Notes under the pieces: model-generated
What the model was told of the DNA's origin: nothing
What the model saw: the letters and a program-made list of their open reading frames with translations, nothing else
Database searches by the model: none
Sequence record: SRR20825019_1354
Strand: one strand, 5' to 3'
DNA: 61,832 nt
Translations under genes and position numbers: made by a program
Shown: one piece after another, positions 13,824 through 38,900 of the stretch
How positions within the stretch are numbered: position 1 is the first letter of the stretch
How the letters are laid out: the number at the start of each line of letters is the position of its first letter

Positions 13824-14491
13824 AGGGGCTTTTCATCACATCAACCGGGACCGAGATTGGCAAAACCCTGGTTACCGCCACCTTGTGCCACCAGTTGAAA
13901 TCAGCAGGCAAACCGGTTGCTGCGATCAAACCCATCATCAGTGGTGTGACAGATAACACCATGGACGGGAGCGACACAGCGCTGATTGCAGCAAGCCTTG
14001 GACTGCCAATGACGTCCAACGTTGTAGAGCGTATTTCACCTTTCCGGTATAAGGCACCGCTCGCGCCCACGATGGCTGCAGTGCTTGAAGGCCGCGCACT
14101 TGATTACGAAGACCTTATCCGCACCTGCCGCATCGCGATGGCTGAAAACCAGTTTACCCTGGTTGAAGGTGTGGGTGGCTCGTTTGTACCTCTTACTGGT
14201 GATCGGTTGGTGGCTGACTGGATCAAAGACCTCGGGCTTGAAAGCCTGCTGGTAGTTGGCAGTTACCTCGGCACCATATCGCACACTATCGCAACGCTTG
14301 AAGCCATGCGCGCTCGCGGGCTTGTTATAAGGGCAATTGTGATCAGTGAAAGCGCAGGCGACAACCCTGACCTCATTAAAACCGCCAATGAAATACGCCA
14401 GCTTACAGGGCTTGAAGTTTCTACTATCCCGCGCCTACCGATTATCCCTGAGCCGTGGACAGTGGCCCCCGATCTTACGCACCTTCTCTAG
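13820..14491 (+). CDS. bioD: Dethiobiotin synthetase
   Basis: FITSTGTEIGKT, VEGVGG and YLGTISHT; GTG start overlaps the bioF stop. Confidence 0.95.
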   Translation: MKGLFITSTGTEIGKTLVTATLCHQLKSAGKPVAAIKPIISGVTDNTMDGSDTALIAASLGLPMTSNVVERISPFRYKAPLAPTMAAVLEGRALDYEDLIRTCRIAMAENQFTLVEGVGGSFVPLTGDRLVADWIKDLGLESLLVVGSYLGTISHTIATLEAMRARGLVIRAIVISESAGDNPDLIKTANEIRQLTGLEVSTIPRLPIIPEPWTVAPDLTHLL

Positions 14492-14639
14492 AAGTCTCTG
14501 TAGGCGGCAAGCCTTACCGAGCATTGACGCCTTCTGCCCGGCATCTTTGTCCGCACCAAATATTCCAGTCGGACCGACCAACCGCACACGAACCCCAAAG
14601 CTATTGAAATGCTTCGCCTCTCCTACGCTGAGTAGAAAC

Positions 14640-14655
14640 TGGCACGCCTGTTGCT
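14640..14655 (+). promoter_or_regulatory. Sigma54 (RpoN) -24/-12 promoter
   Basis: TGGCACG-CCTG-TTGCT, an exact match to TGGCACG-N4-TTGCW, 45 nt upstream of ATG 14701. Confidence 0.85.
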
Positions 14656-14700
14656 CTTAATGCTGGCAAGTTTCACTCGCTACCTTGAGGAAGAAAGATC

Positions 14701-14925
14701 ATGCAACAGTCTTTGCCATTTGACCCAAACTTTTACTTCGGCCTTGTGGCCGACAATCTGCTTAAAAATCTGGGTCCAAAAGCATTGACCTACGCTGACG
14801 AAGCTCTTTCCAAGATGAAAGCAATCGGCGACGAAGAAGGTTTCGACCTCTGGCTTGCGATCCATGAGCAGCTGACCACTAAAGCGGCTGGTTGTTTCCG
14901 CAACGAGACCGCGGTCATCCACTAA
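14701..14925 (+). CDS. Small hypothetical protein (74 aa)
   Basis: GAGGA Shine-Dalgarno, own sigma54 promoter, downstream terminator and amphipathic helical pattern. Confidence 0.75.
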   Translation: MQQSLPFDPNFYFGLVADNLLKNLGPKALTYADEALSKMKAIGDEEGFDLWLAIHEQLTTKAAGCFRNETAVIH

Positions 14926-14940
14926 TTTTGTTTTGAGTTT

Positions 14941-15050
14941 GGACGGGTCATCTCTCAGCACCCGGCACCTAACCGGCCCGTCCTTCGACCGGGATATACC
15001 CAGTCCCGGTCACCAGCCCGCCCCTCACCCAAGGGGCGGGCTTTACTTTG
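14941..15050 (+). ncRNA. Candidate structured 3'UTR / sRNA with three stem-loops, the last acting as terminator
   Basis: CCGG-CACCTAA-CCGG (14962-14976); GACCGGGAT-ATACCCA-GTCCCGGTC (14987-15011); AGCCCGCCCCT-CACCCA-AGGGGCGGGCT (15015-15042) then TTACTTT. Confidence 0.4.
15015..15049 (+). terminator. Rho-independent terminator
   Basis: Perfect 11-bp GC-rich stem followed by a T-rich tail. Confidence 0.8.
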
Positions 15051-15201
15051 CCTGACATGTCATTTGTGCTCAAACATTGGGAAAGTTTCCCACTAATTTG
15101 AGCTGCGCCGAATTTTTCATCTATCTTTCACTTGCTTGAAACTTTCTCACGTGCAGTAATTCAACCTATAAAAAGAACCGATCACCAGTTGGAGACTGTT
15201 A

Positions 15202-15984
15202 GTGAACAGTGTCAGCACGCTCATAGGCCAACTTGAGAATGCCGCGACAAGCCATGATGTTTGGCAATACTTCCTCGATTTCATCGAGGGACGCAGCTTC
15301 AAGTGCGCCACATACGGCTATTCATACGCCCCTATCAACACGGCAATTGAAACTGAAAACGGTAAAGAGACCCATGTGCGTGTTTCTCTGGCGGGCCGTA
15401 CCTGGATCACCAGCATGCCCAAGGAAGGCGTGGAAGAATACCAAAGCCGCCGCTATGAAAAAGTGGACCCTATGATCCACCAGATCGAGAAACGCTCCAT
15501 GCAACCGCTTTATATGGCACGGGAACTTCTCGACCCAAATGACCCCAACTTCAAGGGCTTTGATTTTATTCTGCAGCGCGCCGAACATTACGGTATTTTC
15601 TCCGCTGTCGGCTTTCCACTACGCCATGCTTTTGGACGCGGCCACGGGGAAGTGACCCTGCACGCTGCCCACCGTATCGGCAAGCTGCAGGAGATCATGA
15701 AAATGCACGGTGACGAAGTTCATCTGGCAAGCATCTACATGCACACCTTCTATCAGCCGCTGGAACGGAAGGAACGCGCCGAGCGCCTAGGCATCAAAGG
15801 TCGCCCCCATGAGGTGTTGCAGCAGCTCAATGCAGGCCTCACCAACGGGCAGATTGCCATACGCCTCGGTGTAAGCGCCCCAACCGTATCGTTCCATATC
15901 AAGGAGTTGAAAGAGGCCCTTGCCTGTACATCAACGCGGGAAATACTACCCAGCGCCCTTAAACTCGGCATTCTTGACGACTAG
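15202..15984 (+). CDS. LuxR-family regulator with autoinducer-binding-type domain (LuxR solo)
   Basis: Y-x8-DP motif (EYQSRRYEKVDP) and C-terminal HTH (GLTNGQIAIRLGVSAPTVSFH); no luxI in the window. Confidence 0.8.
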   Translation: MNSVSTLIGQLENAATSHDVWQYFLDFIEGRSFKCATYGYSYAPINTAIETENGKETHVRVSLAGRTWITSMPKEGVEEYQSRRYEKVDPMIHQIEKRSMQPLYMARELLDPNDPNFKGFDFILQRAEHYGIFSAVGFPLRHAFGRGHGEVTLHAAHRIGKLQEIMKMHGDEVHLASIYMHTFYQPLERKERAERLGIKGRPHEVLQQLNAGLTNGQIAIRLGVSAPTVSFHIKELKEALACTSTREILPSALKLGILDD

Positions 15985-35917: not shown

Positions 35918-38900
35918 CTAAAGACCAATCCGTTTAAGTGTCTCATCCATCTGGGTTTTACCCAGTTCCATCAGAAGAGAAATATCTGTCCACAAGAGCG
36001 CAGCGCGTATCTTATGGTTCGGGTATATGCCTTGAAGCGCGCGGGCATAAAGGCCCATCTGCTTCAGATAAACCTCCGGCACATTTGCCGCATCTCTTGG
36101 TGGTGGCCGGTTGGTTTTATAGTCAACAATCAACACATCTGATTCGGTGACCACAAGCCTGTCGACCTGGCCGGAAATAGCCCGTGTGCCCACGAGCCCG
36201 GCAATGGGCACTTCTGCCCGGCTGTTCGGCCCAAAGATGGGTGCAAACTCAGCATCCTCAAGAATGCCATGCACTTCCTGCCAGAAACCATTGGCGGTTT
36301 TTTCATCCAGCCCGGCGCGCAACAGAAAGCGTTTTGCCGTGGCTTGCTGAGCATGCTTCTCGATCTCAGGCAACCATTCCAGCATGCTGTGGATTAGCCG
36401 CCCCCGTTCAAACCGTGCAGCCGACGAGCGGGCCAGCGGGCTTGTGGCTGCTGGCTCGTCTTCATCCGGCTTTGACGGTGCCAGCGGTTTGGGCGGGTTA
36501 GGTTCATCCGGCATTGGCGCCCGCGCCCAGGCGGGCAACGGCGGCAAGGCTTGCCCCTCACTCGCGGTTGCTTCGCGCGGTACAACAGGCGCCGTTTGCG
36601 GCACTATAAAGCGCCTTACACTGTAACCTGCGAAAGCTTCCACATCCTCAGCACCGATACGGTCAAAGCCGCTTTCAATCGCCTTGTACCAGCAATTGGG
36701 GTCCGGCTCTCGTTCCGTCTGCCATCCGGCGATATAGAGCCTGTCTTCCGCCCGTGTGAGCGCGACATATAAAAGCCGCCTGTATTCATGAAGCGCCTTG
36801 TCTTTCAGCTCGGCTTTCTTCTCCTCCGCGAGCGCGAGGCCGGGTGCTGCAGACGTCCACAACAATAAGGGTGGTTTGCCCGGGTCGGCGGCATCAATGG
36901 GCACAAGCCGCCCTTCCCGGCGGATATCAGGGATGCTGACGAGGTCGGAGAGGAACACGATTGGCGCCTGCAACCCTTTGGAGCTGTGCGCTGTCATGAT
37001 ACGCACCTGCCCGCCTGCGGCTTCCATGTCCCGCTTGATTTGCGTACCGCCATGCTCCACCCGGTGGATGAAAGCCTGCAGCGACGCCGTGCCTGTATGC
37101 TCAAACCGGAGCGCTTCCTCCATCAACTCATCGATGGGGTCGTGCACTTCCTCACCCAGCCGGGCCGCGAGCTGTGCGCGACCACCAAGTTCCGTGAGCA
37201 CATGTGAGAAAAACTCAAATGGTGTCAGCAGGTCAGCGCCCCGGATCACGCTTTGCAAAAAGCCAAGCGCGCGCGCAAATGCGGGCTCATCCTTCGCTTT
37301 CGCTTGCAGTGCGTGCCAAAGCGCACCTTTACGGCCGTACGCGAGGCTGAAAAGCTGCTCGTCATCTAGGCCCACGAACGGGCTTTTCAGCACGGTCGCG
37401 AGCGTAAGATCATCTGTTGGCAACAGTGCCGCGTGCGCAAGCGCCAGAAGGTCCATCACCGGCAGCTCATCGGTCAACACCATACGGTCGCGCCCGGCAA
37501 CCGGCACACCCAAGTATTTCAGCGCGCGCACAAGATGGTCAACAAAGGCCGTGCGCCGGCGCACCAGCACAAGAATGTCGCCGGGGGTAATAGCACGGGC
37601 CTGCGCCTCCAGCATTTCACCGCTGGTGATCATTGCCTTGATGCGGCGGGCGATACGCCACGCTGTGCGCCCCTCTGCATCATCCGCATTTTCCTGAATA
37701 AGTGGCGGAACCCAGCCGTCTTCAGCGCTTTCATCCTCCGCCACACTTGGGGCTTCAAGTGGCCACAGTTCCACCATGCCGCCATGGCCCTTGCGCACAA
37801 ATTCGTGCTTCACATGCTCAAGGTCAGCTGACAGCCCATGCCATGCGTCAGCCCCCTTATCAAACACCGCATCCACAAGCGAAAGCACCGCGCCACCTGA
37901 GCGGAAAGAAAGGTTCAGCGGCACCGGTTCGGCCTTCAGTTCCGCCTGCCATGCCCTGTGGAACACCCGGTCGCGGGCCGCCACAAACTCTTTCGGGTCT
38001 GCATGCTGGAAGGAGAAGATCGATTGCTTGGCATCCCCCACGGCAAAAACCGTGCGGACCTTCTCGCTCGCACCCTCGCCTGAGAAAAACTCGGCCGTCA
38101 AAGCCTCCACCACCCGCCATTGTTCCCGGTTGGTGTCCTGTGCTTCGTCAATCAGGATATGATCAACCTGTGCATCAAGCTTGAACAATACCCACGGCGC
38201 CACATCAAGCCGTGCCAGAAGGCCAACTGTACGGCCAATCATGTCGTCAAAGTCAACCATACCGCGCTCGGTTTTGAGCGCGCGATACCGGTCAAGCTGC
38301 GCAAGACCGAGGGTCAGAAGCGCGACTGTTGCTTCCGCAGCCGCTATACGGTTGAGCCGGTCGGCAATCCGTATCAGGCGGGTTTGCTCCTTCTCGATGA
38401 TCGCTTCAAATTCCGGATAGGCGGTCAGCGTTTTTTTGACCGCCACCGTCTTGCGTGGTGTGCCTTCTTTGGTGAGAAACGCGAGCATGTAGCCTTCAAA
38501 CAGCGCCTTGCGCTTATCGCCCTCAGCCGCCGTATAGGCCGTGACCGCCTCGCCCACTTTGGTTTCGGTTTTACTACCTGCAAGCAACACCGGGCCCATG
38601 GCACGCAAGCCGGTGATATCAAAAGCGGCGTCGGCTGTAACCTGATCGAACAGCACGTCGCGCGTCTCACCTGGCGTAAGATCAAGCGCGCGGTAAAGCG
38701 CGGGCGCGAGGCCGAGTTTGCCGTAAGCCTTATCAGCAGCCGCAAGCGTTGAAGTCTCAAACGAAAGCCGTTCGATCACTTCATCAAAAGTCAGCTCAGT
38801 CACAAGTCCGGCCACATGATCAAGCGCCCGGCGCACATGCGCACCCTCTGGACGTCGGGTCATGGCCAGCATCTCATCCTTGGCACCTGCCATCATTTCC

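Follow-up and report, generated by a model that had tools for sequence, protein, structure and literature searches.

The window analysed here is a stretch of DNA of 61,832 nucleotides (sequence record SRR20825019_1354) whose host genus is Kordiimonas, a marine bacterium; the nearest genome, G001, has 93% of the sampled words in common with it. Within the window, a gene for a protein of 74 amino acids (aa) lies between a group of biotin genes and a LuxR-type gene, preceded by a promoter word of the sigma-54 (RpoN) type and followed by three hairpins (H1 to H3). The features are listed below.

Ending at 14491 (last gene), upstream flank: bioB-like, bioF-like, and bioD-like genes (biotin)
14506..14518, plus strand: candidate upstream activator site 1, GGCAAGCCTTACC, an imperfect palindrome (GGCAAG-N-CTTGCC), 134 nt before the -24 element
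14540..14552, plus strand: candidate upstream activator site 2, GGCATCTTTGTCC, 34 nt 3' of site 1
14640..14655, plus strand: sigma-54 (RpoN) promoter, TGGCACGCCTGTTGCT, with -24 element TGGCAC and -12 element TTGCT
14687..14693, plus strand: Shine-Dalgarno sequence GAGGAAG, read in the sequence
14701..14925, plus strand: ORF of the 74-aa protein, with ATG at 14701 and TAA ending at 14925
14926..14940, plus strand: U-rich spacer from the stop codon to H1, column identity 0.44
14941..14983, plus strand: hairpin H1, 9-bp stem (14941-14949 with 14975-14983), 25-nt loop AUCUCUCAGCACCCGGCACCUAACC
14987..15011, plus strand: hairpin H2, 9-bp stem (14987-14995 with 15003-15011), loop AUACCCA at 14996-15002
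15015..15050, plus strand: hairpin H3, an intrinsic terminator, 11-bp GC-rich stem (15015-15025 with 15032-15042)
Starting at 15202, downstream flank: LuxR-type gene with autoinducer-binding and GerE domains

The promoter, the Shine-Dalgarno sequence, the ORF, and the three stem-loops had been proposed in an earlier reading of the same DNA (the original prediction), and all of them are found in the sequence at these positions, together with the loop words that it had named, CACCUAA (within the H1 loop), AUACCCA (H2), and CACCCA (the H3 loop, at 15026-15031). The H3 stem is followed by TTTACTTTG; the hairpin and its T-run were scored as terminator-like, in agreement with the proposal that the last hairpin ends the transcript.

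The promoter and its upstream sites

A sigma-54 promoter is recognised by -24 and -12 elements at a fixed spacing, by rpoN and enhancer-binding ATPases in the genome, and by a conserved upstream site, and all of these were found here. The word at 14640-14655, in the intergenic stretch after the biotin genes, is the sole exact match to TGGCAY-N5-TTGCW in the window. By itself the word is within chance (one match against 0.30 expected, and at least one match in 26 of 100 shuffles). What gives it weight is that the word is kept 52-75 nt 5' of the start codon at 29 of the 30 orthologous loci, a set that includes two near-duplicate pairs (L001 and the window, L027 and L028). The promoter that had been read from one sequence is thus a conserved one, and at the single exception (L019) the word departs in its last letter only.

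The promoter columns have an identity of 0.88 in an alignment of 29 loci, and the 30 loci all show, by eye, a GGAG or GAGGA word equally far ahead of the start codon. Among 18 further loci, five of the same family and 13 of other families, the promoter motif was found by pattern in ten, and most of the remainder, inspected by eye, have TGGCC or TGGCG variants with TTGCT at the right spacing. At more distant alphaproteobacterial loci (21, from a sample of 301 genomes) the motif with at most one mismatch precedes eight genes; all eight encode proteins that end in His, and two of the 13 proteins without the motif also do so. From the usual spacing of the -24 and -12 elements, the start site of transcription is predicted near 14666.

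The G001 genome contains rpoN (429.7 bits against a cut-off of 277) and seven strong Sigma54_activat proteins, among which FlbD, NtrC, NtrX, and PspF are above their NCBIfam cut-offs and the other three are response-regulator types without assignment. A literature search that covered few of the subscription journals found no work on RpoN in Kordiimonas.

An activator-site word (at most three mismatches to GGCAAGCCTTACC) is present 97-134 nt before the promoter in 28 of the 30 loci and in the window, against about 0.02 expected by chance per locus by our calculation. At some loci, e.g., L007 and L015, site 1 is a perfect palindrome. For site 2, words resembling CCCGGCAGCTTTGTCC were seen by eye to recur among the closer relatives. 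The two sites (14506-14518 and 14540-14552) have the usual layout of activator sites, and an activator may bind there. In G001, 13 further exact promoter words occur, and none of them has this upstream site in its vicinity. Elsewhere in the window, a perfect palindrome at 36543-36555 lies within an ORF of 1145 aa and looks like a chance occurrence.

The identity of the activator was approached through the distributions of PspF and the three unassigned proteins over 62 genomes, and none of the four tracks the small protein. PspF, above its cut-off in 52 of the 62 genomes, was rejected for a mismatched distribution, as it is missing from three genomes of family f3 and the sole f10 genome, all of which have the small protein, and is present in families that have no small protein. 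Two of the unassigned proteins, one LuxO-like and one PEP-CTERM-like, were rejected as well, since neither occurs in families f3, f9, and f10. As to the third, a relative of at least 48% identity was counted by us in 56 of the 62 genomes, but three genomes with the small protein are without it.

The small protein

Of 61 genomes of the order (Kordiimonadales), 50 have a homologue of the 74-aa protein. In the genus it is present in 30 of 32 genomes, and in the family in 35 of 37. Nine other families were sampled; homologues turned up in six of them, and none was found in f5, f7, or f8. Over 29 aligned loci, the column identities at codon positions 1, 2, and 3 are 0.83, 0.89, and 0.54, respectively; such codon-periodic conservation is the signature of a translated gene. 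Eight residues, including the final His74, are invariant in an alignment of 27 sequences. The column identity of the ORF is 0.75, and falls to 0.63 in the last 14 codons, so that the end of the ORF and the spacer behind it are the least conserved parts of the locus.

The protein is acidic; its pI in the window is 4.85, which is also the median of 29 family members. AlphaFold2 predicts three helices in a three-helix bundle (pLDDT 83.8), and a Foldseek search of the PDB with the predicted structure gave no informative neighbour (best E 2.8). Scanning the protein against Pfam and NCBIfam gave no family at cut-off, the DUF6961 family of Pfam scoring 13.7 bits (E 0.07), below its gathering cut-off of 27 bits.

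The close homologues in the databases are all unnamed or 'hypothetical' (61 of 61). Searching 1.84 billion representatives with a profile yielded 155 matches at E up to 0.001, most of them 60-100 aa in length and some of them long proteins aligned over several short stretches. When 46 of 150 listed distant homologues were compared with DUF6961, one reached the cut-off (28.2 bits) and four scored below it. The protein atlas likewise has only unnamed clusters and one DUF6961 cluster, at 0.88. Judged by these sequence comparisons, the relation of the 74-aa protein to DUF6961 would be at most remote. No literature on DUF6961 was found in a search that covered few of the subscription journals.

A small-protein family that carries a sigma-54 promoter in several alphaproteobacterial lineages offers a way into a sigma-54 regulon that is so far uncharacterised, and towards the activator of that regulon.

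The structured RNA behind the stop codon

For the 3' stretch of 135 nt the folding energy is -61.4 kcal/mol; 200 shuffled versions give -41.5 ± 3.5 (z -5.7), and not one of them folds as well as the real sequence. The first hairpin had been drawn with a short 4-bp stem. This part of the original prediction is replaced, since both the minimum-energy fold and the comparative data give a stem of 9 bp and a loop of 25 nt. The 4-bp helix (CCGG/CCGG) lies within the H1 loop, and cannot form in those relatives in which the loop reads CACCC-ACACCCAAC. The same three-hairpin fold is found in all 30 loci of the first set; homologous loci therefore retain all three hairpins, rather than a terminator alone with random loops. 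Only a short spacer separates the stop codon from H1 at the loci inspected.

Base pairing was assessed in a model-guided alignment of 36 distinct sequences with 24 modelled pairs, eight in each hairpin. Compensatory changes, i.e., changes on both sides, occur at 24 of the 24 pairs (8 of 8 in H1 and 8 of 8 in H3), and 96.5% of the cells pair. For H2 alone, both-side changes are likewise seen at 8 of 8 modelled pairs, and 99.3% of the cells pair. On each of the five measures used, all 500 shuffles fall short of the observed value, and when the partners are slid, 37-59% of the cells pair. These pair counts lean toward structure, because the alignment was fitted to the covariance model; in a structure-blind MAFFT alignment, compensatory change is seen at 20 of the 24 pairs. 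The stem covariation that had been put forward as the test of the hairpins is thus present (24 of 24 pairs compensatory, with no shuffle as good), and the 3' element is a conserved structured RNA of ~105 nt, composed of H1, H2, and the terminator H3.

The loops are conserved to a higher degree than the stems. The column identity is 0.64-0.71 in the H1 stems, 0.88 in the H1 loop, and 0.98 in the core of this loop (14952-14963, CUCAGCACCC), which is above the promoter (0.88) and the ORF (0.75). Loops that are more conserved than stems, with an H1 core above even the coding region, are what a seed would be expected to show. An exact CTCAGCACCC is present in 32 of 35 distinct full-length RNAs. The word ACCC occurs in the H1 loop of all 35, and twice there in 30, and it is present in the H2 loop of 34 (as ACCCAA in 29) and in the H3 loop of 30; by these counts the loop words that had been noticed in a single sequence are kept at the homologous loci. 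The five RNAs without ACCC in the H3 loop include three of one lineage that have ACCCA directly past the terminator stem. Loop-borne ACCC words number four in 25 of the 35 RNAs and three in nine, against a background of 0.45 per 105 nt on average on this strand of the window; the RNA of the window itself has ACCU where its relatives have the second ACCC of the H1 loop. ACCYA, which had been taken as the common loop word, is upheld in so far as ACCC is found in nearly every loop, but the highest conservation is that of CUCAGCACCC in the large H1 loop.

An overlapping ORF of 40 aa (14933-15055) was also considered for this region. A 1-nt difference in the length of the H1 loop (GG versus A) and other small indels speak against it.

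The covariance model, built from 29 sequences, was searched in 38 genomes of the Kordiimonadaceae and in 24 genomes of nine other families. A strong match, one per genome, was found in 35 of the 38 Kordiimonadaceae genomes, with E from 3.6e-9 to 5.8e-32. Every strong match adjoins the ORF, the two being on different contigs in one fragmented assembly. No match was obtained in the remaining three genomes of the family, which are G006, G032, and G037 (80%, 78%, and 93% complete, respectively); in G037 the small-protein gene is present with unrelated sequence behind it. In the 24 genomes of the other families there was no strong match. Four weak matches were obtained, at E about 0.005, and no similar RNA was seen behind the homologous genes of other families or orders. 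Judging from the genomes searched, the gene is old and the RNA a later addition confined to one family, which would make the locus a clean natural case for how a 3'UTR turns into a regulator. A second match in G001, the only weak one inspected, was rejected as a true copy, being an unrelated hairpin pair.

The possibility that this is an ordinary terminator region or a dispersed REP-like repeat, with loops alike by chance, is extremely improbable. H3 is indeed a normal intrinsic terminator, as such an explanation would have it; there is, however, strong covariation, the loop conservation extends across six genera, and the element is single-copy in each genome, the weak G001 match that was inspected being unrelated. 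A genome-wide REP repeat, which had been named as a way in which the original prediction could fail, is accordingly not what is found, and neither is a known Rfam family. A permissive Rfam scan of 14000-15800 gave nothing significant, and the best match on the element, Pseudomon-1/ErsA, scores 17.1 bits (E 2.7), where the gathering score is 50. The element therefore represents an RNA family outside Rfam, with strong covariation, a seed-like conserved loop, a single copy per genome, and a fixed genomic partner. No small-RNA study of the Kordiimonadales was found in the literature searched, in which few subscription journals were covered.

The RNA sits between the stop codon, which ends at 14925, and the mRNA's own terminator, H3, which RNA and mRNA both use. 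Some 3'UTR small RNAs have internal promoters, and an independent small-RNA gene that has a promoter of its own and merely stands behind the ORF was considered. Nothing was found at this locus in its favour. No sigma-70-like site was called anywhere in 14300-15400, the spacer from stop codon to H1 is short at the inspected loci, and conservation is lowest over the last 14 codons and the spacer. This leaves the sigma-54 promoter as the sole conserved promoter 5' of the RNA and, as the spacer is both short and unconserved, the RNA is most simply made as the 3' end of the mRNA for the small protein. A contig of a metatranscriptome run, X20, also speaks, weakly, against an independent gene, for it spans 14860-15005 and bridges the stop codon into H1 and H2. 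This contig derives from a relative, as is seen from its 13 differences and one gap. It is a weak hint of co-transcription of the ORF and the RNA, because contigs do not reveal ends and DNA may be present in an RNA library. From X14, a run whose RNA label is guessed, a single contig covers 14677-14953 and none lies on the bioD or luxR flanks, where contig gaps are uninformative; from runs X23 and X24 there were no contigs on the locus, and again such gaps prove nothing. A separate gene is, on balance, very unlikely.

Mode of action and known systems

The marks of a small RNA derived from a 3'UTR, i.e., a terminator in common with the mRNA and a conserved structure with a conserved single-stranded seed, are present in the element. 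We hold with moderate confidence that it is a trans-acting small RNA embedded in the 3'UTR of a sigma-54-controlled mRNA. This reading is favoured because of the long open loop with its near-invariant word of 10-13 nt, the conserved loops on variable stems, and the terminator at the 3' end. The dual protein/small-RNA module of the original prediction thus stands in its main part, the element being real, conserved, and small-RNA-like, with the geometry of H1 redrawn.

An enhancer-binding activator at the sites near 14506-14552 would switch on the promoter at 14640-14655, and a single sigma-54-dependent transcript, an mRNA of roughly 385 nt from about 14666 to about 15050, would give two products. 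The mRNA would encode the conserved, acidic, three-helix protein of 74 aa, and its 3'UTR would constitute the structured RNA of ~105 nt. The 3' part would act in trans by base-pairing, either after cleavage of the U-rich spacer or within the full mRNA; the spacer at 14926-14940 may be the processing site. The large open loop of H1 (UCUCUCAGCACCC...ACCCAAC) would serve as the seed, and the ACCC(A) loops of H2 and H3 may provide extra contacts for targets that are G-rich, Shine-Dalgarno-like, or contain UGGGU. The hfq gene is present.

The search for targets bears on this reading and on its rivals. The exact complement of the invariant 10-mer, GGGTGCTGAG, has seven non-self sites in G001, none of them at a translation start; five are within ORFs on the same strand and two are antisense to ORFs, by crude ORF calls, and the count is about that expected by chance. 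Self-regulation, in which the H1 loop would pair with the region of its own translation start, was rejected, as the pairing is no better than in shuffles (mean z -0.34 over 29 loci). In addition, the ACCC loops fit the usual GGAG-type ribosome-binding sites poorly, which counts against the base-pairing reading.

That no mRNA target was found in these searches would suit an RNA that binds a protein instead, the four ACCC(A) words in its loops titrating or recruiting an RNA-binding protein as a sponge or decoy under sigma-54 control. The same short word is indeed carried by every loop on unrelated, covarying stems, and in the lineage of three RNAs that lost the word from the H3 loop, ACCCA stands directly past the stem, which would fit selection on the number of motifs. 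Four sites, however, are few for a sponge, and the best conserved block is a continuous word of 10-13 nt in a large open loop, which suits a pairing seed better. The encoded protein is an unlikely partner because it is acidic (pI 4.85), and no protein that recognises ACCCA loops is known to us from bacteria. We consider protein binding unlikely, though deserving of attention. More doubtful still is the fuller version of it, in which an activator would, through one sigma-54 transcript, release two unrelated regulators, the acidic, His-ended, three-helix protein and a Kordiimonadaceae-specific ACCC(A) decoy for a protein that binds C-rich loops. If this were true, the locus would provide a new sponge/protein pair, its protein being one of a family linked with sigma-54 promoters in several orders of the alphaproteobacteria.

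Stable GC-rich hairpins at 3' ends protect mRNAs, and the element, always joined to the ORF and with a terminator common to both, might likewise be purely cis-acting. The hairpins would then set the stability, the 3'-end formation, or the translation of their own mRNA, for example by protection from exonucleases or as a landing site for another regulator, and would have no function in trans. Protection needs stems, yet here the stems vary freely and the loops are near-invariant, and the pairing with the mRNA's own 5' region was not detected at the 29 loci. Moreover, the homologous genes in other families and orders are without the element, and the gene therefore does not need it. A purely cis-acting role appears improbable, to about the same degree as protein binding.

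The trans-acting small RNA favoured above may be compared with four known systems. In the cuckoo/CcsR RNAs of alphaproteobacteria the loop motif is CCUCCUCCC and the associated small ORF encodes a DUF1127 protein. The loops in Kordiimonas are CUCAGCACCC, ACCCAA, and ACCCA, and not the CcsR motif; no DUF1127 domain was found in the 74-aa protein with Pfam, and the cuckoo/CcsR model of Rfam had no match in the permissive scan of 14000-15800. The two systems resemble each other in having conserved C-rich loop words on differing stems. In Rhodobacter sphaeroides, the CcsR RNAs of the ccaF1-CcsR1-4 locus arise by processing of the ccaF mRNA's 3'UTR, and CcaF1 (71 aa) binds RNA (PMC8034643). Both loci have an alphaproteobacterial small-protein gene (71 aa there and 74 aa here) with hairpin RNAs in its 3'UTR. 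They differ in that one RNA of three unlike hairpins is found here and four homologous RNAs there, and in that the Kordiimonas protein is acidic and its promoter of the sigma-54 type, whereas CcaF1 is described in the same source as RNA-binding.

The nearest logic is that of GlnZ, which is released from the sigma-54/NtrC-dependent glnA mRNA (PMC9731577). In both cases a 3'UTR yields, or would yield, a regulatory RNA from an mRNA under the control of sigma-54 and an enhancer-binding protein, and in such an arrangement one signal drives both the protein and the RNA. The parent gene of GlnZ encodes a large enzyme and is activated by NtrC, whereas the Kordiimonas parent encodes a protein of 74 aa, and the lineages are unrelated. 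No relation of the element to GlnZ by sequence or in Rfam was found.

NrsZ of Pseudomonas aeruginosa is induced by RpoN and NtrB/C and has three stem-loop modules with an essential conserved loop motif (PMC4253122). The likeness lies in the RpoN control, the three stem-loops, and the conserved loop motif, which in NrsZ is essential for function. NrsZ, however, is a stand-alone non-coding gene whose three similar modules are cut apart and carry the loop word ACAGGCAG. In contrast, the hairpins in Kordiimonas are mutually unlike, lie within an mRNA 3'UTR, and have no Rfam match.

CsrB and RsmZ also repeat a short word in the loops of successive hairpins. Their word is GGA, in many copies, whereas the Kordiimonas word is ACCC(A), in three to four copies, and the CsrB/RsmZ models of Rfam gave no match on the element. 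The Kordiimonas RNA is a new family of a known kind, which has a likeness of layout, and no membership, to CcsR/cuckoo and to Csr/Rsm.

The 3' region of the small gene in relatives

The 74-aa small gene is retained in G037, a family member genome of genus g6 that is 93% complete, with its promoter word weakened to TGGCACACGCCCTGCA. Downstream of the gene in this genome, where the RNA (the three hairpins H1–H3) stands in other members, there are AT-rich hairpins unrelated to it. G037 represents a natural loss or replacement of the RNA, and it may be used as a comparison strain in which the gene is present and the RNA lost or replaced.

Small-gene homologues (positions within each locus)
L081, 820-1041, in G037
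L075, 760-981, minus strand, family f3 or f10
L076, 774-992, plus strand, family f3 or f10
L079, 822-1040, minus strand, family f3 or f10

A different 3' word, ATCTGCCC(G/T)ACTGCCTCGGT(G/C)ATGC, is common to L075, L076, and L079 (three genomes from two other families, f3 and f10), in which it lies approximately 60–120 nt past each homologue and continues into a terminator (GCCGAGG...T-rich). In this gene family, the 3'UTR may have turned into a structured RNA on more than one occasion.

Start region and spacer

In these three loci and in L078, the distance from the sigma-54 motif to the aligned start codon is 87–100 nt, and an extra ATG lies in between (ATGCAAAAAGCGCCC... in L076 and L079), which suggests a leader or a longer N-terminus for these homologues.

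Some members of the genus carry the purine word GAG(A/U)U 3–6 nt ahead of H1 (window 14931-14940 and the equivalent place in relatives). Its sequence complements the (A)UCUC that opens the H1 loop, the proposed seed, in a register that varies between relatives. By this complementarity the word could mask the seed; alternatively, it could mark a cleavage site.

Neighbouring and regulatory genes

Further features of the window outside the small gene and the RNA
15202-15984, plus strand, LuxR-type 'solo' gene with autoinducer-binding and GerE domains
36543-36555, perfect palindrome GGCAAGCCTTGCC, representing the upstream site (candidate activator site) in idealised form, within a minus-strand ORF of 1145 aa

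The LuxR-type gene separates the RNA from the conserved TusA, Alph_Pro_TM, and TauE genes. Of the 24 related loci compared, 9 have a homologue in this place, which makes the gene a variable insertion. The palindrome at 36543-36555 is probably there by chance.

In G001, the genome nearest to the window, other exact sigma-54 promoter words occur ahead of plausible genes at several places in contig C1.

Examples of such genes in G001
L099, flagellin-like gene
L095, porin-like gene
L096, gene with a GGDEF-like product (by eye)
L094, TonB-dependent receptor-like gene (by eye)

In the same genome, a LuxO-like activator is encoded approximately 5 kb from rpoN, and hfq follows ntrX at approximately 3.5 kb.
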